A stretch of DNA of 64,000 nucleotides, taken from contig JBCNUW010000005.1 of NCBI GenBank assembly GCA_039630575.1, positions 23,949 to 87,948 on the forward strand. Direction: 5' to 3'. Shown here in pieces: positions 1,865 to 62,375 of this stretch (within the stretch, counting starts at the first letter, position 1; each line of letters starts with the position of its first letter). This DNA is from Candidatus Hydrothermales bacterium (lineage in GTDB: Bacteria > Hydrothermota > Hydrothermia > Hydrothermales > JAJRUZ01). The position numbers were made by a program, and so were the translations under genes. Under the pieces are notes generated by a model that did no database searches, was not told where the DNA came from, and saw only the letters and a list, made by a program, of their open reading frames with translations.

Positions 1865-1875
1865 GGGGTTGAACC
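1865..1875 (-). promoter_or_regulatory. T-loop-like leader motif GGTTCAACCCC, 20 nt before amrS ATG
   Basis: Matches recurrent GGTTCWANNCC motif; no SD before the ATG. Confidence 0.6.
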
Positions 1876-1944
1876 CTTTAAGTTTTATCTAAAGTATGCT
1901 ACTTTAAAAGGTTAAACGGTTTATTATATAATACTTTCTTATTT

Positions 1945-1955
1945 GGTTCTATTCC
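1945..1955 (+). promoter_or_regulatory. T-loop-like leader motif GGTTCTATTCC, 19 nt before ATG 1975
   Basis: TGG-TTCTATT-CCA mini-hairpin downstream of TATAAT (1927-1932); no SD. Confidence 0.65.
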
Positions 1956-1974
1956 ACAAAAAATTCTTTAAAAA

Positions 1975-2457
1975 ATGAAAGTATTCGGAATTAAATATAG
2001 GAAAAAAGATTTTGAATTTGAGGTGTATGGTGATAGAGAGTTTGTTGAAAAAAAGTTCAGCGAACTTTATAAAACTTTTGTTGAAAAGAGGGAAACATAT
2101 CTTGCAAAGGAATTCATTAAATTAAAGAAGCCTCTTGAAGGGATGTTTGAGATTGATTCAGAAAAGGTCAAATCTTTCTTTAAAAATTATACAGCTAAAA
2201 ATAATACACAAAGGATTATTCTTTCTGCAAAGTTCATTTATGAAGTTCTTCAAAAAAAATCTTTCTCTTTATTTGATATTAGGAATATCTATAAGATTAT
2301 GAAATGGAAAATATCAAGAAATCCGTCAACCTTTATACAAAAATTTAAAAGGAAAAAATTTTTATATGTTTTGCCTCAAAAAAAGGGAGGCAGACCAATT
2401 TATGCACTTACAGAGAGCGGTTTAAGATTCGCTGATCAGTTTAAAAAAGTATCCTAA
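1975..2457 (+). CDS. hypothetical protein, possible C-terminal winged-helix domain
   Basis: 160-aa ORF; C-terminal GGRPIYALTESG resembles a wHTH wing. Confidence 0.6.
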   Translation: MKVFGIKYRKKDFEFEVYGDREFVEKKFSELYKTFVEKRETYLAKEFIKLKKPLEGMFEIDSEKVKSFFKNYTAKNNTQRIILSAKFIYEVLQKKSFSLFDIRNIYKIMKWKISRNPSTFIQKFKRKKFLYVLPQKKGGRPIYALTESGLRFADQFKKVS

Positions 2458-2459
2458 AT

Positions 2460-3473
2460 ATGATTAATATCGATGGTTCATACAAGGAAGGTGGCGGTCA
2501 AATTTTAAGAATCTCTATCTTCTTATCACTCTTAACTAATAAACCCTTTTATATATACAATATAAGAAAGGGAAGACCTAATCCAGGTCTTAAAAATCAG
2601 CATTTACACATATTAAAATGCATAAAGGAAATATCAGAATCTAAAGTCGAGGGAGATAGGTTAAATTCCTTGGAGGTAAGATTTTTTCCAGGTAAAGTTA
2701 AAGGTGGAAAAGTAAAAATTGATTTTCAGACTGCAGGTTCAATTCCATTGTTTTTACAGACAATATTTCCCGTTTCTCTTTTATCTATAAATCCAATATA
2801 TCTTGAATTGGTTGGTGGCACTGATGTTCCAGGGGGACCTGTTTTTGATTACTTTAGATATTTTGTTTTAGATATTTTCGATAATCTTTTAAAAGAAAAA
2901 TATTTTTCAGTATTAAAAAGAGGTTACTACCCAAAGGGTGGAGGGATAGTAAAAATTAAATTACATGGAAAACTTGACAGAATTAATCTTGAGTTTGGGA
3001 ATGGAGAGCTTGTTAAAATTAAGGGATTTTTATCAGGATCAAAATTGTTGGAGGATAGGAAAGTTCTTGAGAGGATGAAAGATGCTTTTTGTAAAAAGGT
3101 TAAGTCAATAAATGATAATTTTGAATTTGAACTAAATTACGAGGATTCTCCCTCACCAGGTTGTAGCTTTTTAGTTATTGGAATTTTTAAAGGAAGGAGA
3201 AAACTTGCTGCTGATATTTTGGGCAAAAGAGGAACGCCTGCTGAGGCACTTGGTGAAGAGCTTGCAGATAAATTTGTTCTTTTTTTAAAAAGGGGTGATT
3301 CTCCAGATCCACATCTTGCCGATCATCTTGTTCCTTTTTTTGCTCTTTATGGTGGTGAAGTTTATCAAAGAGAACCCACAGATCATTTTGAAACAGCAAT
3401 TTGGACAACGAAGCATTTTTTAGACTTTAAAGTTGAAAGAAAAGAAAATATTTATAGATTTATTCCACTTTAA
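2460..3473 (+). CDS. rtcA: RNA 3'-terminal phosphate cyclase
   Basis: IDGSYKEGGGQILR, RKGRPNPGLKNQH, TAGSIPL, GGTDVP, RGYYPKGGG, DPHLADHL. Confidence 0.9.
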   Translation: MINIDGSYKEGGGQILRISIFLSLLTNKPFYIYNIRKGRPNPGLKNQHLHILKCIKEISESKVEGDRLNSLEVRFFPGKVKGGKVKIDFQTAGSIPLFLQTIFPVSLLSINPIYLELVGGTDVPGGPVFDYFRYFVLDIFDNLLKEKYFSVLKRGYYPKGGGIVKIKLHGKLDRINLEFGNGELVKIKGFLSGSKLLEDRKVLERMKDAFCKKVKSINDNFEFELNYEDSPSPGCSFLVIGIFKGRRKLAADILGKRGTPAEALGEELADKFVLFLKRGDSPDPHLADHLVPFFALYGGEVYQREPTDHFETAIWTTKHFLDFKVERKENIYRFIPL

Positions 3474-4107
3474 CAAGTTCCCCCTTTTGTAAGTAAAAAA
3501 TTTTTTTACTTTTTTTAAAAATTTCAGAGTTACTGTGACTTGATATAAAGATAATTTTTTTATCTATATTTTCCAATATATAATTTTCGAGTATTTTAAC
3601 TCCTTTTCTATCAAGTGAATTGAAGGGTTCATCTAGATACAGAAAAACAGGATCGTGTAAAAGTGATTTTATCAATGAAATTCTCTGAATCTGGCCTCTT
3701 GAAAGTTCCTTCACTTTCTTATTTAAATAATCTTTTGTTTCAAAAATTTCTGAAAGTTCGAAAATTCTCTCCTTTTTAACATTATAAAATTTTGAGGAAA
3801 ACTCAAGGTTCTCATAACTAGTTAAATCTGGATATAAAAGAGGATTATGGGAAATAAATCCTATATACTTTAGAAATTTTTCAGTTTTGTTATTAACTTT
3901 TTCACCATCATAAAAAATTTCCCCTTCAGATGGAAAAAGAATGAAGGAAAGTATTTTAAAAAGTGTTGTTTTTCCTGCACCGTTGTCACCAATAAAAAGA
4001 TAAAGGCCTTTTTCTTTTATTTCAAAACTTATATTTTTTAAAGCATAGTTTTTTTTAAAGATTTTCTTTAAGTTTATTACTCGGATACTACTTCCCTTTT
4101 GAGCCAT
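3460..4107 (-). CDS. ABC ATP-binding protein, CcmA-like
   Basis: GDNGAGKTT, LSRGQIQR, YLDEPF; IGFISHNPLLYPDLTSYENL is typical of CcmA-like ATPases. Confidence 0.8.
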   Translation of the reverse strand: MAQKGSSIRVINLKKIFKKNYALKNISFEIKEKGLYLFIGDNGAGKTTLFKILSFILFPSEGEIFYDGEKVNNKTEKFLKYIGFISHNPLLYPDLTSYENLEFSSKFYNVKKERIFELSEIFETKDYLNKKVKELSRGQIQRISLIKSLLHDPVFLYLDEPFNSLDRKGVKILENYILENIDKKIIFISSHSNSEIFKKSKKIFYLQKGELVKVE

Positions 4108-4946
4108 CTTTTTCTAATTAAGGCTAAGAAAATGATTAATAAAACTATAAAAATTAAAGGTGGAATAAATTCTTTAAACTTCCTTGCTTCTTTTAATTTT
4201 ATTTCAAAGGAAAAAAAATCACCACTTTTCAAATTTTTGAAAGAATAGAGAAGGAAGTTGCCCTGTGTTGTGTTTATGTTTGTCTTTTCAAATTGACTTT
4301 TTGTTTTTAATTCGATCTCAGGGGGCATCATCACGAGTAATTCATTAACTGGGGTTGGCATTTTTCTTTCGTATTTTACCTTACCTAACGGAATGTGATA
4401 AAGTATTGAAATTGTCTTTAGACCTGGTTTAAAACCATCGGTATACAAAAAGGTATCTCCTTTAATCTTTAACTCAAATGGTAAAATCCCTTGAAGGGAC
4501 AGTATATGTGTTGCCTTATCAGGCATATTTAACTCAAAAGTTTTTTTTACTAACTTATCTGAAGTATTAAAAAAATTGTAAACTTCTACAACCTGTATTA
4601 TTCCTTGCATTAAAACAAAGGCAATATGTGCCCTATTTAGGACTATTTTATCACTTTTAGAGGTTGTATCGTATACTGATAATTTGATATTTTCAACATT
4701 CTCAAACAGAGGATCAGTTCTATAGCTTATACCTTGGAAGTTAGTTTTTAAAAGATAAATTCCCTTTTTATCTGTTTCTACAACAAATTTTCCGTTCGGA
4801 TCTGTTTTAAGTTTAAGAGAATCAACTGGAGTAAGGTTTGAGTCAAGTTCAACAAGAGTAAAAGTGTAATTTTTTAAAGGTATACTGTCTTTTAAAAGGA
4901 TTTGACCTTTAAAGGTTAGGGAAAAAATTAAAATGGATATTTTCAT
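4077..4946 (-). CDS. exported protein with carboxypeptidase-regulatory-like beta domain and C-terminal TM helix
   Basis: Hydrophobic N-terminus, TDPNGKF motif, C-terminal TM followed by basic residues. Confidence 0.6.
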   Translation of the reverse strand: MKISILIFSLTFKGQILLKDSIPLKNYTFTLVELDSNLTPVDSLKLKTDPNGKFVVETDKKGIYLLKTNFQGISYRTDPLFENVENIKLSVYDTTSKSDKIVLNRAHIAFVLMQGIIQVVEVYNFFNTSDKLVKKTFELNMPDKATHILSLQGILPFELKIKGDTFLYTDGFKPGLKTISILYHIPLGKVKYERKMPTPVNELLVMMPPEIELKTKSQFEKTNINTTQGNFLLYSFKNLKSGDFFSFEIKLKEARKFKEFIPPLIFIVLLIIFLALIRKRWLKREVVSE

Positions 4947-4968
4947 AGTTTATGATAATTTATTTTCC

Positions 4969-5703
4969 TTATTCTTTCAAGTAGTTTATTATAAAGTTTC
5001 CGAGTTTTTCTATATTTTCTAAACTTATTTTATCCCAAGTATCTTCCACTGTATGCCAAAAGGGGTAATCAAAGTCAATAAGAAGTATAACTTTCTTATT
5101 CGATTCAAGTAAAGGCAGGTGGTCATCTAATATGTAGTATTTTAACTTTTTAATAAAAAAATTCATTTTCTTTTTCTCAGCATAGCTGAAAATTGAATAT
5201 GTGAGATCAGGAGCAAATCTCAAAGAGTAACCTTCTATAAAGATTTCAAGGTTTTTATCACCAATCATATCAAAAATTATACCCCATTTGATATCGTAAT
5301 TTTTTTTAGCAAAGTGTTTTGATCCGTAAAGTGGCGGTGTTTCTCCGAAATCTTCTCCATCAAAGAATACAAAGAGTAAGTTTTTGTTTAAATCTCTAAG
5401 TTTTTTTGCTAAGTATAAAAGCAAAATTACTCCTGAACCAGAATCGTTTGCCCCTTCAATACCTGGTTTTGTGTCATAATGAGTACCCAAAAGAATAAAA
5501 TTATTTTTTCCTTTTTTAAAAATCAAATTATAAAATTTGAAATTATCTTCAAAGAAAGAATCAATTTCACAAAGGTAGCCCATCTCTTTATACTCCCTGA
5601 AAAGAAATTCTCTTAGTTTTTTATGACTCTCTGTTCCAGGGACTCTCGGACCTATTGAAATTAGAAAATTCATATAAAAAAAAAGAATTGTATCCTTTAC
5701 CAT
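4969..5703 (-). CDS. M28 family peptidase / glutaminyl cyclase-like
   Basis: THYDT, GANDSGSGV, DGED, DMIGD, DDHLP, WHTVEDT Zn-ligand motifs. Confidence 0.85.
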   Translation of the reverse strand: MVKDTILFFYMNFLISIGPRVPGTESHKKLREFLFREYKEMGYLCEIDSFFEDNFKFYNLIFKKGKNNFILLGTHYDTKPGIEGANDSGSGVILLLYLAKKLRDLNKNLLFVFFDGEDFGETPPLYGSKHFAKKNYDIKWGIIFDMIGDKNLEIFIEGYSLRFAPDLTYSIFSYAEKKKMNFFIKKLKYYILDDHLPLLESNKKVILLIDFDYPFWHTVEDTWDKISLENIEKLGNFIINYLKE

Positions 5704-7523
5704 CAGAACATATGAAGAGGCATCGTACTAATATCGATACCAACACAGAATACACCCCTTTGTGGAGGAATTATAACCCACCTTTCCTTGATTACTAATT
5801 TGTCAATTTTCCTTTTTGCCTTTAGATCAAATAAAAAGGCTTCCTTTGGTTTTTCTCTAAAGAGTAATTTGATGTTATCATTTTCTTGTGAGTATAGATA
5901 AATGAAAAGTATATTTTCACTTAAATTTAAAGATAAAAAGTTAACGTTATCGTTTTTTAATTCAAAAAGTGACTTTAAGTCCTTTTTAAGTGTCCCCTTA
6001 AATAAAATTGGCTTATATCTAAATTTCAAAAATTCCTTAACTGTAAACTCTGAAATCTTTTTGATCTCTAATTCAACATTTTTATTAAAGACTAGTTTTA
6101 TTTTACCATTTAACCTTTTTAGAATTGTTCCAGGAATTGTTCTTAGGAGGTATTTTTTTTCTCCCTCTATAACTAAAAAACCTGAATAGACCTTTTCTGT
6201 AGTTAGCTCCTCTTTCATAAATGAAGAAAAGGTGTAAACTTTAAGGTTTTTTTCATTTCCTATTATAATTTCACAATTCTTTATGTTGAAAAGTTTCCCC
6301 TTTATTAAAAAACTTTCATCATGAGGTAAAAGGGATATTGAAAATAAAAAAATTTTTTTGTCCCATTTCAGTTTAGAATATGTCTTAATGAAGTTTTCCT
6401 TGTAAATTTCTTCTTCATAAATTCCGCCTTTCATTTCACCCTTTTCTCCAATTAACTTTGGGTAAATAAGTAGATCATAGAATTTCAAGCTACCTCTTTC
6501 ATAAATTTTGAAATCCACCTCACTTAATTCTGATTTTTCTTCTTTAAGTTCTGAAAAACTAAGGCTTTCTACCTCTGTTTTAAAGAGTTTGTTCTTTATG
6601 ATCCTATAGTATTCTGTTTTAAAGGGTAAAGAATTAAAAATAAAGTAGCTTTCTTTTTCATCAATAAGATCTTCTGTAATTTTCTTGCTGTAAAACTTTA
6701 ATTCCTTAATTTCTTCTTTTATTAATTCTATATTTTCTGTGTTGAAAAGTTTTAAGAAATTTTTAGTCTTTTCCTTAATAAAGTAATCTGAAAGAGTAAC
6801 TTTGTGAACTTTAAGAATTGTATTTAAAACGCTACATTTAAAAATTAATTCCTCAAGTTTTTTGAAGTAAAGGAAATTTTTTTTAATTTTTAGATCTGAA
6901 TTAAATTCAAGGGGTTCCCCCTTTTCAGGAACAGTTGATATTATTTCCTCAAGTGAGAAGACGTTGTTTTTTATTTCATCTTTTTGAGGAAAAGATTCTA
7001 TGAATACAGTTTTTGAGTCAAAAGAAACGTTCATTATTTTAATTTCATTTTCAGTGTCTTTTGTTATAATGATGTGTTTTTTTAATGGAATTTTTGAAAG
7101 TACAAGGTCTATCTCAAAACCTTTTATAAGGTAATAAAATCCACTTGGCAGTTTACTTATTAGTGGTATGTAAAGAATTTTTTCTCCTGAAAAATTTTCC
7201 TTTAGTTCATCGTAAACAATTTTAAAATTTGTAATAAGTGAGTGAGCTTCAAGAATATTTAAGGGAATAAAATAATAAAGGGGGTTAATTCCAATTTTTT
7301 TTAGTCTAAGAAGTAAGTTAATTTTTAACTCTTCAGAACTATTTTCTTTATAAAATCTTAGAAAGAAAGAGGCACTAGATCCTGTGTGGATGTATCTTAT
7401 ATTTCCTTTTTCCATTTCTTGAAGTATTTTTTCAAATTTAACTCTCCATTCTGGATAGCTTAGATTGAAGTTTCTCTCATAATCTGTTTCTAAAACATTC
7501 ACAAAAATTTTTTCCTCTTTCAT
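5703..7523 (-). CDS. hypothetical protein, possibly degenerate GH38-like fold
   Basis: 606-aa ORF coupled to cheR. C-terminus (NVNFLSLNLSENILFIYLYS...PKEAFLFDL) weakly resembles the GH38 C-terminal domain. Confidence 0.5.
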   Translation of the reverse strand: MKEEKIFVNVLETDYERNFNLSYPEWRVKFEKILQEMEKGNIRYIHTGSSASFFLRFYKENSSEELKINLLLRLKKIGINPLYYFIPLNILEAHSLITNFKIVYDELKENFSGEKILYIPLISKLPSGFYYLIKGFEIDLVLSKIPLKKHIIITKDTENEIKIMNVSFDSKTVFIESFPQKDEIKNNVFSLEEIISTVPEKGEPLEFNSDLKIKKNFLYFKKLEELIFKCSVLNTILKVHKVTLSDYFIKEKTKNFLKLFNTENIELIKEEIKELKFYSKKITEDLIDEKESYFIFNSLPFKTEYYRIIKNKLFKTEVESLSFSELKEEKSELSEVDFKIYERGSLKFYDLLIYPKLIGEKGEMKGGIYEEEIYKENFIKTYSKLKWDKKIFLFSISLLPHDESFLIKGKLFNIKNCEIIIGNEKNLKVYTFSSFMKEELTTEKVYSGFLVIEGEKKYLLRTIPGTILKRLNGKIKLVFNKNVELEIKKISEFTVKEFLKFRYKPILFKGTLKKDLKSLFELKNDNVNFLSLNLSENILFIYLYSQENDNIKLLFREKPKEAFLFDLKAKRKIDKLVIKERWVIIPPQRGVFCVGIDISTMPLHMF

Positions 7524-12091: not shown

Positions 12092-12271
12092 TTATTTCCC
12101 CTTTTCAAAAATTAAATGAAAGGCAATAGAAAAGAAAAGTAATGTCCATGTGCCCTTAATATAAGTATAGGGTTTAAAAAGATGGGGAAACTCAGCACCT
12201 GTTAATTTTAAGATCATAGCAATTATAAATGTTATTACAGCTAGAAAAAATAAAACTTTTGAAACTTTCAT
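12092..12271 (-). CDS. small two-TM membrane protein
   Basis: 59 aa from ATG 12271 (MKVSKVLFFLAV...), two hydrophobic helices, preceded by the leader motif. Confidence 0.65.
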   Translation of the reverse strand: MKVSKVLFFLAVITFIIAMILKLTGAEFPHLFKPYTYIKGTWTLLFFSIAFHLIFEKGK

Positions 12272-12292: not shown

Positions 12293-12303
12293 GGAATTGA
12301 ACC
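12293..12303 (-). promoter_or_regulatory. T-loop-like leader motif GGTTCAATTCC, 21 nt before ATG 12271
   Basis: AGG-TTCAATT-CCT immediately after a TATAAT -10 box; no SD. Confidence 0.65.
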
Positions 12304-12437
12304 TTATAATTATATAAAATATTTTAAAGTATTTGATTTTATTTGTAAAGTATATATATAATAAAAATAACAATTAATAAAAGGGAGGTGGGTTAAATTC
12401 CCATAAATTATCTTAAAACAATAGGGAGGGTTAAAAA

Positions 12438-13691
12438 ATGGAAAAGAAAAATCCATTTGAAGTTGCCCAGGAGCAGCTTGATAAGGCTGCAAGTGTATTA
12501 AAACTTGAACCACATATACATGAGATGCTGAGATGGCCTATGCGTGAAGTTCATGTAACAATTCCTGTAAGAATGGATGATGGAACAGTTAAAATTTTTA
12601 AAGGCTATAGAGTTCAATACAATGATGCCCTCGGTCCAACAAAAGGTGGTATAAGATTTCACCCAGAGGAAACTATTGATACTGTTAGAGCACTTGCTGC
12701 TTGGATGACTTGGAAAACAGCTCTCATGGACTTACCCTATGGTGGAGGAAAAGGTGGTGTTGTCTGTAATCCTAAAGAGATGTCAGAAAGAGAACTGGAA
12801 GATCTTTCAAGAGGCTATATAAGAGCAATTGCTCAGGTTATAGGTCCTGAAAAGGATATTCCTGCTCCTGATGTTTATACAAATCCCCAGATAATGGCTT
12901 GGATGATGGATGAATTTAGCAAAATAAGACAGTACAATTCACCAGGTGTCATAACTGGAAAACCATTAAGGATTGGTGGTTCTGTTGGAAGAATAGATGC
13001 TACTGCAAGAGGTGGAATGTATGTTTTAAGAGAAGCTGCTAAAAAACTCGGAATAGATCTTAAAAATGCTACCTGTGCAATTCAGGGCTACGGAAATGCA
13101 GGTTATTTTGCCCATAAATTGATAACAGAAATGTTTGGAACAAAAGTAATCGCTGTAAGTGATTCAAAGGGAGGAATTTTATCAAAAGATAAAAAACCCC
13201 TTGTTTTTGAAGAGGTTTTTGAACATAAAAATAAAACAGGATCAGTAGTTGGATTTAAGAATACAACTAAGATTACAAATGAGGAACTCCTTGAACTTGA
13301 TGTTGATATTCTTGTACCTGCTGCACTTGAGGAAGTTATTACAGGTGAGAATGCAAACAGAATTAAAGCGAAGATAATTGTTGAGCTTGCTAACGGTCCA
13401 GTTACACCTGAAGCTGATGATATACTCCATAAGAAAAATATTTTATTTTTGCCTGATTTTCTTGCAAACGCTGGTGGTGTAACTGTTTCATACTTTGAAT
13501 GGGTTCAAAACATAACTGGACTTTATTGGGATGAAGAAGAAGTTTATTCTAAGCTGGATAATAAAATGACAAAATCCTTTAATGCTGTTTGGGATGCTAT
13601 GCAAGAATATAAAGTTGATCCAAGAGTTGCAGCTTACGTTGTTGCTGTAAAGAGGGTTGTTGAAGCAATGTCTTTGAGGGGTTGGGTATAA
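12438..13691 (+). CDS. gdhA: Glu/Leu/Phe/Val dehydrogenase (glutamate dehydrogenase)
   Basis: [52 protein letters not shown]. Confidence 0.95.
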
Positions 13692-15095: not shown

Positions 15096-15617
15096 TTAAA
15101 ATCCTAAACCTTTTAATCCGATAATTGTTAATGCTGCTGCACCTAAGAGTATAAAGAGGAAAAAAGCTACTACAACTGGAATAAGAACTACTACTATTGC
15201 CTTAGCAAGATCAAGTTGATGAACAATCTGAGTTATTTTTACTGTAACAACTATTATCCAGATTCCTGCAAGAGTAGAAAGAAAAGCACCAATAAAGGGT
15301 ACGACCGATACCCATTGTAAGATATAGGTCATCGCTATTGGTATATAGTAGGAAATATACTCTCCCTTTCCACCTAAAATTCTTGCAATTATCCACAATA
15401 TCCCGATACCTATAAAGGATAAAATAACTGCAAGTATTGGAAGTGTTATTATGCCAGGGATAATTTTAAGTGAACCTATTGCGCCAGCAATTCCTGCAAT
15501 TGCCACAATTAAAATTGACCAGAGGAAATTTTCCCTTTTTTCAGAAGCTTCTTTTATTGCTTCTTCCTTAAGTTGAATAATATTGAGAGCCCTTTCGATT
15601 ATTTTTCCAAAGTCCAT
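15096..15617 (-). CDS. YIP1-family membrane protein
   Basis: Multiple TM helices, ARILGGKG.Y motif. Confidence 0.75.
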   Translation of the reverse strand: MDFGKIIERALNIIQLKEEAIKEASEKRENFLWSILIVAIAGIAGAIGSLKIIPGIITLPILAVILSFIGIGILWIIARILGGKGEYISYYIPIAMTYILQWVSVVPFIGAFLSTLAGIWIIVVTVKITQIVHQLDLAKAIVVVLIPVVVAFFLFILLGAAALTIIGLKGLGF

Positions 15618-15637: not shown

Positions 15638-15648
15638 GGAATAGAACC
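15638..15648 (-). promoter_or_regulatory. T-loop-like leader motif GGTTCTATTCC, 20 nt before ATG 15617
   Basis: Lies in a 32-nt intergenic spacer; no SD. Confidence 0.65.
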
Positions 15649-36181: not shown

Positions 36182-36256
36182 GGGCGGGTAGCTCAGATTG
36201 GTGAGAGCGTCGGCTTTACAAGCCGAAGGTCGTAGGTTCAAATCCTGCCCCGCCCA
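36182..36256 (+). tRNA. tRNA-Val(TAC), CCA not encoded
   Basis: GGGCGGG/CCCGCCC acceptor stem, D-arm GCTC..GAGC, anticodon arm TCGGC-TTTACAA-GCCGA, T-arm GTAGG-TTCAAAT-CCTGC. Confidence 0.97.
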
Positions 36257-36266: not shown

Positions 36267-38636
36267 ATGAAAAATTTTTCTATCCTCTTTGAATCTAAAA
36301 CCAAAACCTTTATCCTATACTCAATCATATCTCTTATTTATTTTTATGACCCTCTTTTTACCTTTAAACTGATGGCTGGTTCAGATTACCTGCTTGGAGG
36401 TTATGCCTCAAGAGAATGGCTCTCCTTGTGGTTAAAAAAATTCTACTTCCCTCTTTGGTATCCTGATGAAAGATTAGGTTACCCACTTCTTGAGGAATTC
36501 TGGATGGATATATTCACACCTACTGGACTTTTAAGACTTCTTTTACCTACTCATATTCACTTTAATCTTAGCTTTTTTATCTATACACTTCTTGCTGGAT
36601 TCGGAACTTATCTTTTTCTTAGAGAGCTAAAGATTAAACCAATTTTTGCCTTTATTGCAGGTGTTTTTTATTCATTTTCAGGTGCCTTAATAACAAATAC
36701 CTCAGCTGGACACCTTAACAGGCTCGTAAGTTCCTCTCTTTTGCCATATGTGCTTTTTTTCCTTTTGCTTGGTGTTAATAAAAAGAAATTTTTCTTTTTT
36801 ATCCTTGCAGGTTTTTTCTCAGGTTGGCAATTTCTTGGGGGACATTTTCAATTTAACTATTTCTCTTTTTTTATATATATACCCTTTTTCTTTTTCCTTT
36901 TATTTTCAAATCCTTTAAGTGTTAAGGAAAAAATAAAGCTAACTATCTACGCTGCATTTGGACTTTTTCTTACTTTAATGCTTTTCTCAGTTTACTTTCT
37001 TCCCCTATTTAAAAGTCTTAAATTTGTAGCAAGAGGTATTGAAAGAGGATATGAGTACTCTGCAAGCTGGCCCCTTTTCCCACTTGAAAGTCTTGATATG
37101 ATATTTATAAACTTTTCAGGATTCTTCGATACTTACTGGGGTCCAAATCTGTTTAGGCTTAACCATTACTACATCGGTTTTTTCCCCTTCGTATTCTTTA
37201 TACTTTCTCTTTTTTCAAAAAATAAAAAAACTGTTTTATTTTTCTTTATACTTTTTCTTATAACTCTAACTTTTGCCTGGGGTAAGTATTTTTTAACACA
37301 TAAGATCTTCTATAATGTACTACCCGGTATAAGTAAATTCAGGGGACCTTCAAACATCTTTTTCCTTTGTACTTTCAGTTTTGTTACCTTATCTGCCTTC
37401 GGTTTAACTTACTTTTTTGAAAATTTTGATGATAAAAAAATAAAGATAACACTTTTTACTTTTCTTACCCTTTTTATTCTTCTACTTTTACTTTTATCAC
37501 CAGTTAAAGATTTTCTAAGGGATGTTGTAAGGAAGATTTCAGAAAACCCAAAGGAGCTTAATGAGAAATTATTTGCTCTTGATAAGGTAATACCGCTTTT
37601 TAGAAATAACCTTATTTTTCTGATTTTTGAAATAATTATTGTTTATTTTATTTTTTTTCTTTTTAAAGTTAAAATAGAAAAAGAATTTTTGTTTCTTTTA
37701 TTCCCAATCATTACAATTTTTGAAGCTTTAATTTTCTTAAGACCCAAATTTTTAAAATCCATGGATATTAAAGATTACTTAAAAAGTGATGAAGTAATAG
37801 ATTTCCTTAAAAAAAGAGAAGGTGAGTTTAGGGTTTTTTACTTCCCTAACTTTTATGAACACGATAACGACGGAATTTTATCGATTTATGGAATTGAAGA
37901 TGTGGGAGGATATGTGGCAAGTCCAATTCAAAGATATCAGGATTTTATCGGTTCAGGTCAATCTGTTATGTTTAACCCTCAAAATCTAATCAAGAATAGA
38001 AACCTTCTTAATCTTTTAAATGTAAAATATTTAATTTTTCCTACTTTTCCCATGGATACACTAAAGGTTAAAGATAATGTAAAAAAAATTGTTAAATTTC
38101 TTTTAGAATATACACGAAATATGGATCTTGTTTTAAAGGGTGATAGATACTATATCTTTGAGAATAAAAATGATTTTGGAAGATTTTTTGTAAGAGGAAA
38201 AATTTATGTGGCAGAAACAGACAATGAAGCGCTAACGTTTACGGTAAAAGAAAGTATTTTTGATACTTTTGCTATAGTTGAAAAAAAATTTTTAAATGAT
38301 GAACTAAAAAATTTTGGGAGCGCTTCTCCTCAAATTGAAGAATTAAAAATTATTGAAAAAAAACCTGGATATTATAAAATTAAAATAAGATTAAACCAAA
38401 AGGGAATTTTAGTATTTTCAATGAATTACCACAACGCATGGAATGTGTTTGTTGATGGAAAACAAGGAACGGTATTTCCTGTAAATTACACTTTAACAGG
38501 AACTATAGTACCTGAAGGAGAGCATGAAATTATCTTCAGATTTGGTTCTCCTTTTCATTACGGTGGAATTTTCATTACTCTTTTAGGCTATTTTATTTTC
38601 CTATGTTTACTTGCACTTTTTGTTTTCAAAAGGTAA
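36267..38636 (+). CDS. YfhO-family membrane glycosyltransferase-like protein
   Basis: PLWYP..LGYP, GGHFQ, PGISKFRGP, LLNVKY, WNVFVDG..VPEGEHEI. True start taken as ATG 36267, after the tRNA. Confidence 0.8.
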   Translation: MKNFSILFESKTKTFILYSIISLIYFYDPLFTFKLMAGSDYLLGGYASREWLSLWLKKFYFPLWYPDERLGYPLLEEFWMDIFTPTGLLRLLLPTHIHFNLSFFIYTLLAGFGTYLFLRELKIKPIFAFIAGVFYSFSGALITNTSAGHLNRLVSSSLLPYVLFFLLLGVNKKKFFFFILAGFFSGWQFLGGHFQFNYFSFFIYIPFFFFLLFSNPLSVKEKIKLTIYAAFGLFLTLMLFSVYFLPLFKSLKFVARGIERGYEYSASWPLFPLESLDMIFINFSGFFDTYWGPNLFRLNHYYIGFFPFVFFILSLFSKNKKTVLFFFILFLITLTFAWGKYFLTHKIFYNVLPGISKFRGPSNIFFLCTFSFVTLSAFGLTYFFENFDDKKIKITLFTFLTLFILLLLLLSPVKDFLRDVVRKISENPKELNEKLFALDKVIPLFRNNLIFLIFEIIIVYFIFFLFKVKIEKEFLFLLFPIITIFEALIFLRPKFLKSMDIKDYLKSDEVIDFLKKREGEFRVFYFPNFYEHDNDGILSIYGIEDVGGYVASPIQRYQDFIGSGQSVMFNPQNLIKNRNLLNLLNVKYLIFPTFPMDTLKVKDNVKKIVKFLLEYTRNMDLVLKGDRYYIFENKNDFGRFFVRGKIYVAETDNEALTFTVKESIFDTFAIVEKKFLNDELKNFGSASPQIEELKIIEKKPGYYKIKIRLNQKGILVFSMNYHNAWNVFVDGKQGTVFPVNYTLTGTIVPEGEHEIIFRFGSPFHYGGIFITLLGYFIFLCLLALFVFKR

Positions 38637-38654: not shown

Positions 38655-38665
38655 GGTTCAAAGCC
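38655..38665 (+). promoter_or_regulatory. T-loop-like leader motif GGTTCAAAGCC, 26 nt before ATG 38692
   Basis: GGG-TTCAAAG-CCC; an SD (AAGGAGG) is also present. Confidence 0.55.
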
Positions 38666-38691: not shown

Positions 38692-38895
38692 ATGATTTGT
38701 CCTGAGTGCGGCTCAATGAAAATTGAAGAAATAGAGAAAGGGTACTTCTACTGTCTTGAATGCGGTCATGAGTTTTCCGAAGAAGAGGAGTATATTGATG
38801 AATCAGACTATGAAGATGCTGTTCTTGAAGACGAAGAGGAGGAAGAAGAATTTTATGATTACGATGAAGAGGAAGAGGAGGAGGAGGAATTTTGA
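38692..38895 (+). CDS. small zinc-ribbon protein with highly acidic tail
   Basis: CPECG..CLECG, Glu/Asp-rich C-terminus, strong SD. Confidence 0.75.
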   Translation: MICPECGSMKIEEIEKGYFYCLECGHEFSEEEEYIDESDYEDAVLEDEEEEEEFYDYDEEEEEEEEF

Positions 38896-52961: not shown

Positions 52962-53100
52962 TAGAAGATTATAACAGTTAGTGTTGAAAAAAATCAAATT
53001 ATAAAGTATATATAATAATAGTTAATCGAACGCTATGCGAATAAATATTTCTATAAAGTTTTTCGGTATTCATACAAATTTCACTATTTCCCCCTCGATG

Positions 53101-53111
53101 GGTTCTAATCC
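53101..53111 (+). promoter_or_regulatory. T-loop-like leader motif GGTTCTAATCC, 24 nt before groES ATG
   Basis: GGG-TTCTAAT-CCC; an SD (GGAGGT) is also present. Confidence 0.6.
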
Positions 53112-53135
53112 CTTTATTTTTTGGAGGTAAGAATA

Positions 53136-55099
<1,964 letters not shown>

Positions 55100-55109
55100 T
55101 TAAATTCTT

Positions 55110-55139
55110 AGGGGGAGGGAAATTTTTTAACCTCCCCCT
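55110..55139 (+). terminator. hairpin after groEL (terminator or stabiliser)
   Basis: AGGGGGAGG-N12-CCTCCCCCT; weak U tract. Confidence 0.6.
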
Positions 55140-55162
55140 TAATTTAAAAGGAGGTAAAATTT

Positions 55163-55420
55163 ATGCCCATTTTTGAATTTTTGTGTGAGAAATGTGATAA
55201 AGTCTTTGAGGAACTTGTTTTACCTTCTGAGAATGAGCCTGAAAGGTGTCCTGAATGTGGTGAAAAAAGTCTCAGAAAGCTTTGGAGAGGTAGTGTAGGG
55301 CTTGTTTTTAAAGGTTCGGGATTTTATATAACTGATTATTCTAAGAATAAAAATAGTGAAAATAAGGAAAAAAAGGAAGGTAGTAATTCCTGTTGTTCAA
55401 CCTGTTCCTGCTCATTATAG
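55163..55420 (+). CDS. FmdB-family zinc ribbon protein
   Basis: MPIFEFLCEKC..CPECG..FKGSGFYITDY. Confidence 0.88.
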   Translation: MPIFEFLCEKCDKVFEELVLPSENEPERCPECGEKSLRKLWRGSVGLVFKGSGFYITDYSKNKNSENKEKKEGSNSCCSTCSCSL

Positions 55421-55422
55421 AA

Positions 55423-56274: not shown

Positions 56275-56276
56275 CT

Positions 56277-56471
56277 TTAAGCCTTTTTATTGATTTTACA
56301 AGTTGATATACCAAAGGGAAGATACAAAGGGCAAAATCCGATAATTCCTGTTATTAAAGGTACAAGACCAATTATTCCCCACAGGCTCTTAAAGTAAATT
56401 CCAAGAAAGATTATAATTATCCCTAAAATAATTCTTATCCATCTATCTATTCCACCGACATTTTTTTTCAT
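56277..56471 (-). CDS. DUF2892 (YgaP-like) membrane protein
   Basis: MKKNVGGIDRWIR..FCPLY..GISTC. Confidence 0.9.
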   Translation of the reverse strand: MKKNVGGIDRWIRIILGIIIIFLGIYFKSLWGIIGLVPLITGIIGFCPLYLPFGISTCKINKKA

Positions 56472-56496
56472 TTTTTAATTCTTTCATTTTTGTTTT

Positions 56497-56507
56497 GGAT
56501 TTGAACC
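56497..56507 (-). promoter_or_regulatory. T-loop-like leader motif GGTTCAAATCC, 25 nt before ATG 56471
   Basis: TGG-TTCAAAT-CCA, core identical to the tRNA-Val T-loop; no SD. Confidence 0.65.
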
Positions 56508-56572
56508 ATAATAATAATTATCATATTCAATTGTTTTTTTCAAGTTTTGTTTTCTTATAATTTTTTTGATTC

Positions 56573-57970: not shown

Positions 57971-57978
57971 AATTAATT

Positions 57979-58734
57979 ATGTTTTTTGATACACATGCTC
58001 ACTTAAATGATGAAATTTTTTTCGAAGATCTTGATTTAGTTGTAGAAAGAGCTTTTAAGAATAAAGTAGAGAGAATAATTGTAGTAGGCTATGATGTTAG
58101 TTCTTCTGAAAGAGCAATTGAAATCTCGCGTAAATATAAAGGAAATATTTTCGCAGCATGTGCTATCCATCCTCATGATGCACGAAATTTTGAAAATGAT
58201 TTTAAAATAATAGAGGAATTATCAAAGGAGGAGGAAGTAATTGCTATAGGTGAGACAGGACTCGATTTTTATAGAAATTTCTCCCCAAGGGAAGCTCAGA
58301 TTGATTGCTTTAAAGCCTCTATTGAACTTGCTATTAAGAGGAATTTACCCCTGATTTTGCATGTCAGAAAGGCTTTTCCAGAAGTTTTTAAGATTTTAGA
58401 AGAATATAAAAATCTTAGAGGAATTTTTCATTCTTTTTCAGGTGGAATAAATGAATCAAAAAAGGCTATAGAGCTTAATTTTTGTGTCTCTTTTTCTGGT
58501 TCAATTACTTATGGTTCTAAAAAACTTGAATTAAGCTTAAAAAATCTTCCCTCAGATAGGATTTTGTTTGAAACTGATTCCCCTTATCTTACTCCAAGAC
58601 CATTAAAGGGTAGGAATGAACCCGCTAATCTCTTTTATACAGTAAACTTTGCTTCCTCTATTTTAGATATTTCTATTGAAGAGTTAGAGAAAGTTACTTC
58701 AGAAAACGCAAAAAGGCTTTTTAACCTTGAATAA
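57979..58734 (+). CDS. tatD: TatD family hydrolase
   Basis: DTHAHL, IHPH, IGETGLD, ETDSPYL. Confidence 0.93.
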   Translation: MFFDTHAHLNDEIFFEDLDLVVERAFKNKVERIIVVGYDVSSSERAIEISRKYKGNIFAACAIHPHDARNFENDFKIIEELSKEEEVIAIGETGLDFYRNFSPREAQIDCFKASIELAIKRNLPLILHVRKAFPEVFKILEEYKNLRGIFHSFSGGINESKKAIELNFCVSFSGSITYGSKKLELSLKNLPSDRILFETDSPYLTPRPLKGRNEPANLFYTVNFASSILDISIEELEKVTSENAKRLFNLE

Positions 58735-59692
58735 GAAAATTTTACTTTTGTTAAAGGTTTTTTTGACTTTCTTTTTACTTGGTGTAATTTTTTATAAGAT
58801 AGACATCAATGAATTTTTAAAAATATATAAAAGAATTAATTTTAAATATTTAGTTCCAGCTATTTTGGCCTATTATTTTGCCTTTCTTTTTCTATCTTTG
58901 AGGTGGAAGTTTTTACTCTTGGGGTATTCAGGTAAAGTAAAACTTTTAGAGATATTTAGAGTTTATTTACTTGGAATGCTTATAAACACGGTTTCACCAA
59001 GTACATTAGGTGTGGATGTTTTGAGGGGTTATTTAATAGAAAAAAAGATTAAATCGGGGAAATCTTTTGCTTTTGCCTCTGTTTTGGTTGATAGAATAGT
59101 AGGTCTTTTTGGAATTTTCTCTTTTGCACCTTTTGGGCTTCTTTTTTTAAAAGGAATCCCTAATTCACATCTTCTTTTGCTTTTTTGTGTCATAATATCT
59201 TTTTCAATAATTCTTATTCTCTTTTTAACACAATCAAATTTTTTTGAAAGGATCTTTAAAAATTTAATTAAAAATATTCATTTTGGGGAGATAAATAAAA
59301 AAATTGAAAGGTTTTATGATTCTTATAAAATTTACTCAAGGTACAAAAGACTTTTATTTTTCTCTTTCATTTTAACAATTTTTTTACAAACTTTTTTTTC
59401 AATTCAAGCTTACTATTGTGCAAGAACCCTTTCTTTTAATATTTCTCCCTTTATATTTATTTTTATCATTCCTTTGATAAATGCCTTAAATTTGATACCT
59501 CTTACGATTTCAGGACTTGGGATAAGAGAGGCAGGTTTCTACATTCTCTTTAGTCAGTATTTCTCACCAGAATCTTCTGTTTCAATTTCTTTTCTTTATT
59601 TTATCTCTGGAGTTTTTGCAAATTTACCCTTTGGTATATACCTCTTTAAATCACCATTTGAAAGTGAAAAAGAAATAAAAAATTATTTATAA
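58727..59692 (+). CDS. lysylphosphatidylglycerol-synthase TM / flippase-like protein
   Basis: LRW, PSTLGVDVLR, VDRIVG, PLTISGLGIRE. Confidence 0.85.
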   Translation: MNKKILLLLKVFLTFFLLGVIFYKIDINEFLKIYKRINFKYLVPAILAYYFAFLFLSLRWKFLLLGYSGKVKLLEIFRVYLLGMLINTVSPSTLGVDVLRGYLIEKKIKSGKSFAFASVLVDRIVGLFGIFSFAPFGLLFLKGIPNSHLLLLFCVIISFSIILILFLTQSNFFERIFKNLIKNIHFGEINKKIERFYDSYKIYSRYKRLLFFSFILTIFLQTFFSIQAYYCARTLSFNISPFIFIFIIPLINALNLIPLTISGLGIREAGFYILFSQYFSPESSVSISFLYFISGVFANLPFGIYLFKSPFESEKEIKNYL

Positions 59693-59702
59693 TTGATTTT
59701 AA

Positions 59703-60659
59703 ATGGATATTAAAGAATTATATAAACCTGTAAAGGATGGAATAGAACTAGTCAATTTTAAGATAAAGGAGATTTTTAAGGAGAGTTACTTGCCTAAGTT
59801 TCAAGATAGTTTGCTGCAAGGTAAGAGATTAAGGCCCTTACTTGTTCTTTATTCTTCTTTTGCTTTTAGAGATTTAAACGAAGAAAAAGTTCATGTAGCT
59901 TGTGCTGTTGAACTTGTTCATTTTGCATCTTTAATTCATGATGATGTAGTAGATGAAGCTAAGGAGCGAAGAAGAGCTTTCACCCTTAATTATCATTATG
60001 GAAATCACGTAGCTGTGTTATTAGGAGATTTTGTTTTTTCTAAGGCGATGGAATTCATAAGTAAGGTAAGAAATCCTGACCTATATGAAATTCTTTCAAG
60101 AACTTCTGTTGAGATGTGTGAAGGTGAAATAATTGATGAGTTTCTTGAAAGGGAAAAAAGGTTTGATTTAGAAAACTACTTAACTTTAATTAAGAAAAAA
60201 ACAGCTTCACTTTTTTCTGCAAGCTGTGAGATGGGTGCTTTGCTATCTGGATGTGTAGACATAGAAAGGATGAAGAGTTTTGGTTCAAAATTTGGTCTTT
60301 TGTTTCAAATTCTTGATGATCTTCATGATTTTTATAGAGAAGGCGAAGATATAAAAAGGAGTAAGGTAACTCTTCCTCATATACTGTTTAAAGATCTGAT
60401 AAGAGAAAAATTTCCGAAATTTTTTGTTGAAGAAAATGAAAACTTAAGTAGAAAAGTGAGAATCTTTTTGATCGAAAATGGGGTTACCGAAAAGTGTTAT
60501 GGTTTTTTAGATACTTACTTTAAAGAATTAAAGGACATAACCAAAGGATTTGATAAAACAATTAGGGATTACTTATACTCTTTTATAGATTATCTTAATA
60601 AAAATAAAATATTTTTATTCGATGAAAAAATTAAGGGTTCAAACCCAAAAATTTCTTAA
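59703..60659 (+). CDS. polyprenyl diphosphate synthase
   Basis: GKRLRP, HDDVVD..RR, KKTASLF, FQILDDLHD. Confidence 0.92.
   Translation: MDIKELYKPVKDGIELVNFKIKEIFKESYLPKFQDSLLQGKRLRPLLVLYSSFAFRDLNEEKVHVACAVELVHFASLIHDDVVDEAKERRRAFTLNYHYGNHVAVLLGDFVFSKAMEFISKVRNPDLYEILSRTSVEMCEGEIIDEFLEREKRFDLENYLTLIKKKTASLFSASCEMGALLSGCVDIERMKSFGSKFGLLFQILDDLHDFYREGEDIKRSKVTLPHILFKDLIREKFPKFFVEENENLSRKVRIFLIENGVTEKCYGFLDTYFKELKDITKGFDKTIRDYLYSFIDYLNKNKIFLFDEKIKGSNPKIS
60636..60646 (+). promoter_or_regulatory. T-loop-like leader motif GGTTCAAACCC, 19 nt before ATG 60666
   Basis: Embedded in the tail (KGSNP) of the upstream CDS. Confidence 0.55.
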
Positions 60660-60665
60660 AGAGGA

Positions 60666-61124
60666 ATGATATCTAAACTATTAAAACCTGAGTATATTAT
60701 ACTTGATCTTAAGGGGAAGACAAAAAGTGAGGTTTTGAAGGAAATGATAGAAGTTTTACCAATAGGTGAAGATAAGAAAAAAAGTGTATATGAGTCTGTT
60801 TTAAAAAGAGAAGAGATAGGTTCAACAGGGATTGGTAAGGGTATAGCAATTCCACATTCAAGGAGTGTTACTCTGGATGATGTTTATTTAGTTGTTGGTG
60901 TAAGTAAAAAAGGGGTGGATTTTGATGCTATAGATGGTAAGCCGGTTCATTTAATTTTTCTTTTGTGTGCAACACCAATAGATCCTGATTCAAGATATTT
61001 AATAACACTTGGAAAGATTGCACATCTTGCACGAATTCTCTCGAAGGATAAAAGTTATTTAAATTTTGAAAATGAAAAGAAATTCATAAGTTACATAAAA
61101 GAATTGGAGTCTAAAGGTGGCTAA
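60666..61124 (+). CDS. ptsN: PTS IIA (Ntr/Fru-type)
   Basis: RE..GSTGIGKGIAIPH, GVDFDAIDGKPVHLIF. Confidence 0.85.
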   Translation: MISKLLKPEYIILDLKGKTKSEVLKEMIEVLPIGEDKKKSVYESVLKREEIGSTGIGKGIAIPHSRSVTLDDVYLVVGVSKKGVDFDAIDGKPVHLIFLLCATPIDPDSRYLITLGKIAHLARILSKDKSYLNFENEKKFISYIKELESKGG

Positions 61125-61464
61125 AGAGAAAGTAAATATCATTAATACCTTAATTGCAATTAACGATTTAGATTCACAACTTTCAATTCTTGAAAATCCC
61201 TACTATAAGGAACTTGGTTTTGAGTTAAACGAGAAAAAAATAGAGAAATTAAGGGAAATCAGAGAAAAGGAAATAGAGAAGTTGCCTCCTGAAATAAGAG
61301 ATGAATATGAAATGTTACTTAGAAGATATGGTAAGGGAGTAGCACCTCTTATTGAGGGTACTTGTCTCAACTGCTTTGCTATACTTCCAACATCCTTACT
61401 TACCTTAGAGGGAAAAAATTTAATCAGATGCCCAAATTGTTCAGTTTTTCTTTATAAAGTTTAA
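61117..61464 (+). CDS. C4-type zinc ribbon protein (DUF164-like, short coiled coil)
   Basis: CLNCF...CPNC. Confidence 0.7.
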   Translation: MAKEKVNIINTLIAINDLDSQLSILENPYYKELGFELNEKKIEKLREIREKEIEKLPPEIRDEYEMLLRRYGKGVAPLIEGTCLNCFAILPTSLLTLEGKNLIRCPNCSVFLYKV

Positions 61465-61465
61465 A

Positions 61466-61771
61466 ATGGAAGAAAAGAATTTTGTTTCTCAACCACCTAT
61501 TCAGATAGAGCTTTCTGAGAAAGAAGCAGAGGGAATTTATTCAAATTTTGTTATGATTATTCATTCACCATCTGAATTTATTTTTGATTTTGCAAAAATA
61601 ATGCCAGGGATTCCAAAGGCAAAGGTTCAAGCTAGAATAATTATGACCCCTTCGCATGCTAAGTTACTTTTAAAGGCTCTTTCCGATAATATAGAAAAAT
61701 TTGAGCAGAGATTTGGAGAAATAAAGATTCATGAACAGGAAATTAAAAAAATAGGCTTTACTCCAAGATAG
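61466..61771 (+). CDS. DUF3467 protein
   Basis: GIYSNF..HSPSEFIFDF, ARIIMTPSHAK, FEQRFGEI. Confidence 0.88.
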   Translation: MEEKNFVSQPPIQIELSEKEAEGIYSNFVMIIHSPSEFIFDFAKIMPGIPKAKVQARIIMTPSHAKLLLKALSDNIEKFEQRFGEIKIHEQEIKKIGFTPR

Positions 61772-61820
61772 GAATTAGCTTTTCCTTGAATTTTAAACAA
61801 ATATATATTATTATTAAGAA

Positions 61821-62375
61821 ATGAAAATTTTTTTAAAGGAACTTAAAGAAGGAAAAACCCCTTTCTTTTATGAATTAAAGGGAAATGAAAGTGAAAAACT
61901 ATTTGAAAATTCAGAAATAAAAAGAGTTTCTCTAAATGTTTCAGGTTGGATTCAGAAAAAGGGTGTTGAGTATGTTTTTTATATTTCTGCTGATGGAGAA
62001 GGTTTTTTGGTGTGTTCTCGCTGCCTAAAGGAATTTAGGATTCCCATTAAAGAGGATTTTACATATAACATACTTTTGGGTAAAGATCCCTCCCTTTTGA
62101 AAAGAGATTATAATTTTACAGATAAAGATGTTTCAACAATTTATGTTGAAAACTACGAACTTGACAGTTTGCCACTGTTGAGGGAGACAGTTCTTCTTTC
62201 TTTACCACTAAAACCTTTATGTTCTGAAAACTGTAAGGGTTTATGTCCTGTATGTGGTGTAGACAGGAATAAAAAAGATTGTGGACACAAAGTGGGCGGT
62301 GCTCGTTCACCCTTTTCTGTATTACTTGAGGAGTTTAAAAGTAAGGGTTCAAGTCCTAAAGATAAAACAAAGTAA
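61821..62375 (+). CDS. yceD: DUF177 / YceD protein
   Basis: CSRCL, LCSENCKGLCPVCG; upstream of rpmF. Confidence 0.88.
   Translation: MKIFLKELKEGKTPFFYELKGNESEKLFENSEIKRVSLNVSGWIQKKGVEYVFYISADGEGFLVCSRCLKEFRIPIKEDFTYNILLGKDPSLLKRDYNFTDKDVSTIYVENYELDSLPLLRETVLLSLPLKPLCSENCKGLCPVCGVDRNKKDCGHKVGGARSPFSVLLEEFKSKGSSPKDKTK
62346..62356 (+). promoter_or_regulatory. T-loop-like leader motif GGTTCAAGTCC, 22 nt before rpmF ATG
   Basis: Embedded in the yceD tail (KGSSP); rpmF has no SD. Confidence 0.6.

Follow-up and report, generated by a model that had tools for sequence, protein, structure and literature searches.

A T-arm-like motif upstream of start codons in one family of Candidatus Hydrothermales: a candidate Shine-Dalgarno-independent translation-initiation element

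The window analyzed here, a 64-kb stretch of a Candidatus Hydrothermales genome (contig JBCNUW010000005.1, positions 23,949 to 87,948 of the forward strand), carries repeated copies of an 11-base motif with the core sequence of the tRNA T-arm, most of them a short distance upstream of start codons. Matches were scored with the patterns GGTTCNANNCC and GGTTCWANNCC. The first pattern showed 11 copies in the window in comparison to 0.88 expected from dinucleotide-preserving shuffles, and none of 100 shuffles gave 11 matches, the maximum being four. For GGTTCWANNCC, the chance expectation is 0.58. Both values agree with the estimate of less than one chance match made in an earlier, sequence-only reading of this DNA; the GC content, put at about 28% there, was measured as 30.1%. 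One of the 11 copies is the real T-arm of a tRNA-Val, one lies inside rtcA and nine are located 19-26 nucleotides (nt) 5′ of the starts of unrelated genes.

A divergent gene pair carries the motif on both sides. Copy GGTTCAACCCC at 1865..1875 (−) lies 20 nt before the ATG of a radical-SAM gene (813-1844), and copy GGTTCTATTCC at 1945..1955 (+), with a TATAAT-like box on its 5′ side, lies 19 nt before the ATG of a gene for a 160-aa protein without Pfam match (1975-2457, +). Neither leader has a Shine-Dalgarno (SD) sequence. The gene for the 160-aa protein is located directly 5′ of the RNA 3′-phosphate cyclase gene rtcA (2460-3473), with which it is apparently co-transcribed. The copy inside the rtcA coding sequence (2736..2746, +) has no start in range and most likely belongs to the ~20-30 copies that arise by chance in each genome. 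On the minus strand, GGTTCAATTCC at 12293..12303, directly preceded by TATAAT, lies 21 nt before the ATG of a 59-aa open reading frame (ORF; 12092-12271) without SD, and a Yip1-domain gene (15096-15617) has a second GGTTCTATTCC copy at 15638..15648, 20 nt ahead of its ATG; there the motif is kept in all five genomes of the window's genus that have this gene. The T-arm of tRNA-Val-TAC (36182-36256) occupies 36235..36245 (+), 21 nt before the start of a YfhO-like gene (36267-38636), which begins 10 nt past the tRNA end and has no SD.

Two leaders combine the motif with an SD. These are GGTTCAAAGCC at 38655..38665 (+), 26 nt from the ATG of a 67-aa zinc-ribbon ORF (38692-38895) with AAGGAGG in between, and GGTTCTAATCC at 53101..53111 (+), 24 nt from the groES ATG (53136) with GGAGG in between. 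The copy GGTTCAAATCC at 56497..56507 (−) is separated by 25 nt from the ATG of the gene for a 64-aa YgaP-like membrane protein (56277-56471), which has no SD. The last two copies are located within the tails of upstream genes: GGTTCAAACCC at 60636..60646 (+), within ORF 59703-60659 and 19 nt before the ptsN ATG (60666-61124), and GGTTCAAGTCC at 62346..62356 (+), within ORF 61821-62375 and 22 nt before the ATG of rpmF, encoding L32 (62379-62573), which has no SD. A variant, GGTTAAATTCC with C56 changed to A, is found at 12391..12401 (+), 36 nt 5′ of the gdhA ATG (12438-13691) with the SD GGGAGGG in between.

The ten copies listed in the sequence-only reading were recovered with identical coordinates, strands and gaps (20, 19, 21, 20, 21, 26, 24, 25, 19 and 22 nt), as were the gdhA variant and the further copy inside rtcA, and its gene names agree with Pfam (radical SAM, Yip1, YfhO, Cpn10 for GroES, PTS EIIA-2, L32, Glu dehydrogenase and RtcA). 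Its statement that most of the downstream genes are devoid of an SD is borne out as well, since by eye a clear SD is visible only at 38655, at 53101 and at the gdhA variant. An Rfam 15 scan of the window returned the tRNA-Val as sole match at gathering score, and no Rfam family matches the motif, which the sequence-only reading had not recognized as a catalogued element. Apart from its leader, the groES gene (53136-53450) has a frame broken by TAG after 48 codons; the expected GEVIAV stretch is read in another frame for ~15 codons before the original frame resumes. This looks like the effect of two nearby indels around a G-run and is probably an assembly error rather than a pseudogene.

The genome containing the window comprises 1.886 Mb in 95 contigs, with 30.3% GC and a completeness of 94.7%. 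It holds 207 motif copies, 43 of them within the 46 tRNA genes. Copies were counted as start-linked when the start codon of an ORF of at least 40 aa followed 13-37 nt downstream on the motif's own strand. This applied to 130 of the 164 non-tRNA copies (117 with ATG), while 29 copies lie inside ORFs and five are otherwise intergenic. The ORF-internal copies, 21 antisense and eight sense, are at about chance level, as a reversed-pattern control gave 22 copies. When only ORFs of at least 80 aa were considered, 112/164 copies were start-linked in sense orientation vs 13/164 in antisense, and for gaps of 13-26 nt the numbers were 93/164 and 4/164, respectively. Thus, the enrichment by strand and distance expected from the window holds genome-wide. 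Start linkage at 5000 random positions amounted to 7.9%, and eight permuted control motifs, present in 7-74 copies each, showed only 0-4 copies near starts. The genes behind the motif are functionally diverse, including EF-Tu, S12, L32, GroES, ferritin, ribonucleotide reductase, a sigma-70 factor and HtrA. As EF-Tu, S12, L32, GroES and ferritin belong to highly expressed gene types, the element must allow high expression.

The eight fixed bases of the motif correspond to tRNA G52, G53, T54, T55, C56, A58, C61 and C62, i.e., to the core of the T-arm (positions 52-62, RF00005). By search definition, every leader can form the 7-nt loop closed by the G53-C61 pair, with U54 and A58, the reverse-Hoogsteen partners of the T-loop, as well as U55 and C56 invariant. 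The form found most often in leaders, GGTTCAAATCC, is at the same time the most frequent T-arm core among the genome's own tRNAs. All 24 single-base variants were counted genome-wide and start linkage was lost in all but two, both at C56, where it was partially retained (C56 to A, 7/32; C56 to T, 9/81). At loop position 57, the 112 leaders analyzed carry A in 83, T in 16, C in seven and G in only six cases, whereas G57 is present in 16 of the 46 tRNAs including the initiator tRNA. Mimicry of the initiator tRNA was therefore discarded, as the leaders prefer A57.

A third stem pair flanking GG/CC forms in 73 of the 112 leaders (G-C in 24, A-T in 35), compared to 54.3 ± 3.8 expected and with none of 2000 shuffles as high. 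Pairs beyond the third are at chance level. The stem consists of at least 2 bp in all leaders and of 2 bp in 39, 3 bp in 33 and 4 bp in 23 of them (2-4 bp in 95/112), whereas 40 of the 43 tRNAs have a 5-bp T-stem. The leaders also differ from tRNA in that the acceptor, D and anticodon arms are missing: ARAGORN and Rfam recognized no tRNA at the leaders, and hence no 5-bp T-stem in a cloverleaf. Farther out, the flanking sequence is rich in A/T and shows no remains of an acceptor strand, for which reason tRNA remnants or integration sites were rejected as a source of the copies. The motif is not palindromic and is strand-specific.

The relation to the SD was assessed by calling an SD wherever an SD 4-mer occurred in a 14-nt stretch whose end is 4 nt from the start. 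According to this definition, 94 of the 130 leaders have no SD, with a median gap of 20 nt (interquartile range 18.75-22) and a spacer composed of 50% A, 35% T, 7.7% G and 7.1% C, i.e., 85% A/U, as anticipated from the window. An SD 4-mer was found in 0/53 leaders with a gap of 13-20 nt, in 14/46 with a gap of 21-24 nt and in 22/31 with a gap of 25-37 nt, which shows an anticorrelation with the SD. Where both signals occur (36 leaders), the SD is 5-10 nt away from the ATG, and the distance between motif and SD is spread flat over 8-23 nt. ATG triplets are scarce within SD-less spacers (8 vs 20.3 ± 4.0 expected), a figure partly biased by the picking of starts. The motif itself is no SD, as it contains none of GGAG, GAGG or AGGA and its gap is 17-24 nt instead of 5-10 nt. 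Pairing of the motif with the anti-SD tail was likewise rejected, since it leaves the invariant TTC and A unexplained and would put the site nearer to the start instead of at a greater distance.

A genome of the sister family, compared over 1.96 Mb or ~93% of its length, yielded 1142 pairs of reciprocal best hits. Starts were regarded as aligned if the start codons fell within 3 residues of each other. A free-standing motif is present here in 94 pairs, 79 of them with aligned starts, and the sister orthologues of these 79 genes have an SD in 66 cases and the motif in none. Among SD-less genes, the orthologue carries an SD in 49 of 58 pairs with the motif (84%) vs 99 of 289 pairs without it (34%), corresponding to a Fisher odds ratio of 10.4 (p = 1e-12). 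For genes with an SD and no motif here, the orthologue has an SD in 101 of 137 pairs. The ptsN leader may serve as an example. In all six genomes of the window's family the motif lies 19-20 nt before the ATG within the tail of the upstream gene, and in all four sister-family genomes having the gene AAGGAGGT is found in place of the motif. Because all other families of the class are without the motif, the SD would represent the ancestral and the motif the derived state. Beyond the motif genes, SD use differs between the two genomes in general: 137 of the 426 aligned-start genes without motif have an SD here vs 200 of their sister-family orthologues, and 99 genes whose sister-genome orthologue has an SD show neither an SD nor the motif here.

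The spacing is independent of genomic context, as had been proposed from the window. The SD-less median gap was 21 nt for the 39 leaders with a divergent upstream gene, 20 nt for the 34 leaders with a same-strand neighbor and an intergenic distance of more than 60 nt, 20 nt for the 34 with a distance of up to 60 nt, and 21 nt for the 21 leaders in which the motif lies inside or overlaps the upstream ORF. Consequently, the motif is tied to the start codon, not to the transcript end. TATAAT-like hexamers accumulate 8-17 nt 5′ of the motif (68 matches in 129 leaders vs a background of ~3 per position). From these −10-like boxes upstream of the motif it follows that the hairpin is near the mRNA 5′ end at promoters and that the mRNAs are not leaderless.

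A signal acting at the DNA level, either part of a promoter for leaderless transcripts or the binding site of a transcription factor, was considered since the motif spans approximately −31 to −21 from the ATG and would be near the place of the −35 box if transcripts were leaderless. In leaderless promoters, the −10 box keeps a constant distance to the ATG. Inside the SD-less spacers, however, TATAAT-like hexamers occur 0-6 times per position (in up to 93 leaders) without a peak, and such hexamers lie upstream of the motif instead. Together with the 21 copies inside upstream ORFs, the strict strand specificity (4/164 antisense vs 93/164 sense at gaps of 13-26 nt) and the covariation of the stem, this renders a DNA-level signal extremely improbable.

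Genuine T-arms show a related arrangement. An ORF of at least 80 aa starts 17-37 nt after the T-arm, or ~6-25 nt past the tRNA 3′ end, at 22 of the 43 tRNA genes, one of these cases being tRNA-Val with the yfhO gene in the window. An SD is missing from 19 of these ORFs, 12 of which have ATG as their start codon. This suggests tRNA-mRNA co-transcripts. In a 793-kb sample of the sister family, which is without free-standing copies, such an ORF was found at 5 of 23 tRNAs, with four being ATG-initiated and SD-less, and on ATG starts alone the difference between the two families is not significant. We hypothesize that borrowing of the T-arm of an upstream tRNA by genes may predate the free-standing copies and be a possible origin of the motif.

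The tRNA-adjacent ORFs, as well as the TATAAT-like hexamers 8-17 nt upstream, which place the hairpin within about the first ten transcript bases at promoters, would also be in agreement with a hairpin that stabilizes the 5′ end or with a cleavage mark that separates cistrons in the manner of tRNA punctuation. But 55 of the 130 copies are operon-internal or located in upstream coding tails and have the same gap, and a stabilizer would neither need a fixed distance to the start nor replace the SD. As to processing, RNase P and RNase Z need an acceptor stem, and the leader flanks are A/T-rich and unpaired past the third pair. We therefore regard stabilization or processing as a very unlikely function of the motif.

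Within the order, the six genomes of the window's family, which represent two genera, contain 207-306 motif copies, and five sister-family genomes contain 60-98. The pattern 'motif, 16-25 nt, ATG' has 97-177 matches in 6/6 family genomes vs 3-38 matches in 58 other genomes of the class (11 families). Five further genomes of the phylum showed 19-30 motif-plus-ATG matches, which equals background level. The element is hence restricted to one family of uncultured, heat-loving bacteria, being present in all six of its genomes and in none of 58 other class genomes and five more of the phylum. The second genus, sampled over 281 kb, shows the same arrangement, with 23 of its 27 non-tRNA copies start-linked and an SD-less median gap of 21 nt. 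Raw counts are raised in several other genomes of the phylum. A wider distribution on these grounds was dismissed, as the copies in the two genomes with the highest counts sampled (G116 and G080, with 61% and 64.5% GC, respectively) are not start-linked and the GC content is high. A search with the leader-type pattern across 185,579 species gave at least 111 stretches, with single matches in many phyla and two in WOR-3 records among the matches listed. In the open-access literature searched, no title or abstract describing such a leader element was returned, and it looks like a start signal not previously described. Two irregularities were seen among the genomes of the order. One sister-family bin (G005), 67% complete, holds a second 16S copy (L009) of the type of the motif-bearing family, which suggests that the bin is contaminated, and uS2 of another genome (G010) scores like the sister family.

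Taken together, strand, spacing, covariation and the exchange against the SD at orthologues point to the motif being an SD-independent translation-initiation element, a T-arm core placed in the mRNA leader, and we consider this the probable explanation. The element would be read as RNA, promote initiation and be recognized by way of its T-loop. Its G-C pairs 52-62 and 53-61 are invariant and usually extended by one more, covarying pair, and its 7-nt TTCNANN loop has T54, T55, C56 and A58 invariant. Where it is the sole signal, its 3′ edge is positioned 17-24 nt (median 20) before the start, from which it is separated by a spacer of 85% A/U, a distance that should put the hairpin just outside the mRNA exit of the 30S subunit. 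Standby sites and structured operators dock at this same place. If an SD is also present, the SD would set the register at 5-10 nt and the T-arm mimic, 8-23 nt further upstream, would become an auxiliary landing site. Candidate readers are the ribosome's own contacts to the tRNA elbow or a T-loop-binding protein.

Several observations weigh against such an element. Motif and SD occur together in 36/130 leaders, hence the two are no strict alternatives. The hairpin is weak, with a nearest-neighbor median of −1.8 kcal/mol at 37 °C and +1.85 kcal/mol at 70 °C, and the G53-C61 pair has a probability above 0.5 in only 37/130 leaders at 37 °C. These energies imply that a partner or tertiary stabilization of the T-loop is needed. 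Gene starts were taken from crude ORF rules, not from a trained gene finder, and the genomes of one family are kin and not independent samples. Of the components compared on the reading side, none sets the family apart. Three family and five sister-family genomes share the canonical 16S 3′ end GGATCACCTCCTTTC, and both families have bS1, bS21, bS18 and uS2 in frames of similar length. All 11 genomes of the order encode a single copy of TruB, with the catalytic GNLDP motif in both families, and TrmI, TrmFO and a TrmA-family enzyme were found in both as well, TrmFO not being found in one genome of the family (G008, 96% complete). As TruB, TrmI, TrmFO and the TrmA-family enzyme occur in both families, they cannot by themselves explain the restriction to one of them.

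The 16S rRNA of the two families differs at 76 alignment columns. A helix at ~829-856 is 2 nt longer and of different sequence in the motif-bearing family (L005, L006 and L008 vs L001-L004 and L007). The arms of this helix, GGGTTCCC / GGGAATCC in one genome, are similar to the two motif halves. The helix (830-856) was rejected as pairing partner, as its sequence is not conserved within the family, and the resemblance was treated as a coincidence.

The restriction to one family (6/6 vs 0/58 other class genomes) and the very sharp sequence definition would also fit the binding site of a family-specific, non-ribosomal RNA-binding protein, i.e., a CsrA-like global regulator or chaperone gating ~7-10% of the genes. 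Family-specific proteins do exist, given that 396 ORFs of this genome are without homologue in the 93% of the sister genome, 32 of which were seen in a 12% sample of the second genus. A Pfam scan of 30 of these 32 family-shared, sister-absent proteins, however, revealed no known T-loop-binding domain, and the one protein with OB folds is membrane-anchored. This protein is the product of the first gene of a two-gene unit (G000 C11:33891-36532) that also occurs in the second genus but has no counterpart in the sister genome. It combines a zinc ribbon and a membrane helix with two to three OB-fold domains of the tRNA_anti-codon type, and the second gene codes for a TctA-like membrane protein. The OB-fold protein is an unlikely reader of the motif. 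Moreover, the genes concerned are unrelated and include the most highly expressed ones (EF-Tu, S12, L32, GroES), and since motif genes have lost the SD of their orthologues, the site must supply initiation and not merely modulate it. On this evidence, a separate RNA-binding regulator appears quite unlikely.

The invariant bases of the motif are the T-loop bases, and the leaders could thus primarily be substrates of the T-loop enzymes TruB (pseudouridine 55), TrmFO (5-methyluridine 54) and TrmI (1-methyladenosine 58, m1A58), all of which are encoded in the genome. The purpose would then be mRNA modification, e.g., a heat-dependent control of stability or decoding, with the link to the start being secondary. 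In eukaryotes, TRMT6/61A introduces m1A into T-loop-like hairpins of mRNAs. The motif equals the consensus GUUCNANNC, which in the available part of PMC13492117 is described in short-stem hairpins as the mRNA target of TruB-family enzymes (yeast Pus4, human TRUB1). Judged by the requirements stated in that part of the source, the leaders qualify as TruB substrates in sequence, with the consensus given by definition, a stem of at least 2 bp in all and of at least 3 bp in 73/112 leaders: the same text reports that E. coli TruB acts on a GUUCNANNC hairpin with a 3-bp stem at ~0.3 of the tRNA rate and that human TRUB1 needs only a 2-bp stem. It also relates that bacterial TruB is held to act only on tRNA (PMC13492117, available part). 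The targets of Pus4, TRUB1 and TRMT6/61A differ from the leaders in being scattered in eukaryotic mRNAs, of low occupancy and not tied to starts.

Modification alone, however, gives no explanation for the 20-nt spacing, the equal spacing in operons, the replacement of the SD or the restriction to one family. The sister family has the same enzymes and no such leaders, and G57, common in tRNAs, is avoided in the leaders. From the interpretation offered by the sequence-only reading, the RNA-level, non-SD element tied to the start is retained as indirectly supported, on the basis of strand, spacing, SD anticorrelation, covariation and the SD of sister orthologues, whereas the mechanism it proposed, recruitment of ribosomes through mimicry of the tRNA elbow or reading by RNase P/Z, TruB, TrmI or TrmFO, stays hypothetical. 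We judge it unlikely that modification is the primary role. It can be reconciled with initiation if modification stabilizes the hairpin, and in view of the exact GUUCNANNC match the leaders may also be modified.

An SD-independent initiation element of this kind can be compared with other systems. Like the SD, it has a fixed place upstream of starts with similar tightness and is found at orthologous genes where the sister family uses an SD. Unlike the SD, it is without complementarity to the anti-SD, lies 17-24 nt from the start and belongs to a fold type with a covarying stem rather than to rRNA pairing. Viral tRNA mimics offer another comparison: the loop of the intergenic-region internal ribosome entry site (IRES) contacts the L1 stalk, and turnip crinkle virus has a T-shaped 3′ enhancer. 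With these the leaders would share the principle of an mRNA structure that imitates part of a tRNA and engages the tRNA-binding surface of the ribosome. The viral structures, however, are eukaryotic, large and multi-helix, in contrast to a bacterial chromosomal hairpin of 11-17 nt at ~130 cellular genes. As in SD-independent initiation in Bacteroidota and in leaderless mRNAs, SD use is lowered lineage-wide; those systems have, to our knowledge, no structured upstream motif, and a −10 box at fixed distance, as in leaderless promoters, was not seen here. Finally, upstream binding sites of the 30S subunit are frequent in E. coli according to the available part of a preprint (bioRxiv 10.1101/2025.04.04.647229). 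The motif resembles such standby sites, as far as that part describes them, in its place in the leader away from the SD region and in its potential for loading 30S subunits. The sites of 10.1101/2025.04.04.647229, again going by the available part, can be located more than 100 nt upstream and often depend on SD-like motifs, unlike the one sharp, structured motif at fixed distance found here.

A further-reaching version of the initiation element is tempting, and we put it forward tentatively, as possible but rather doubtful. The motif might add a third mode to SD pairing and leaderless initiation in bacteria and act as a minimal 'bacterial IRES', being read by its shape as a tRNA elbow, e.g., by the L1 stalk or by a ribosome-bound T-loop reader, while the start codon ~20 nt downstream is held in the P site. 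It could possibly have arisen from genes borrowing a tRNA T-arm.

How starts are found without an SD is a long-standing question, as in large parts of the bacterial tree the SD is present at a minority of genes. The family described here provides an unusually well-defined natural case, in which an 11-base motif stands in the SD's place at ~100 genes, among them those for EF-Tu, S12 and L32, with the SD still used at the same genes in the sister family and the anti-SD tail unchanged. If the T-loop enzymes instead modify the leaders, this would be the first programmed, genome-wide targeting of mRNA by bacterial TruB, TrmFO or TrmI. If the motif is indeed an initiation element, it would supply an orthogonal initiation signal for synthetic biology, gene finders would need a new class of ribosome-binding site for this lineage, and it would be the first case in which tRNA mimicry serves as a start signal in cellular mRNAs.

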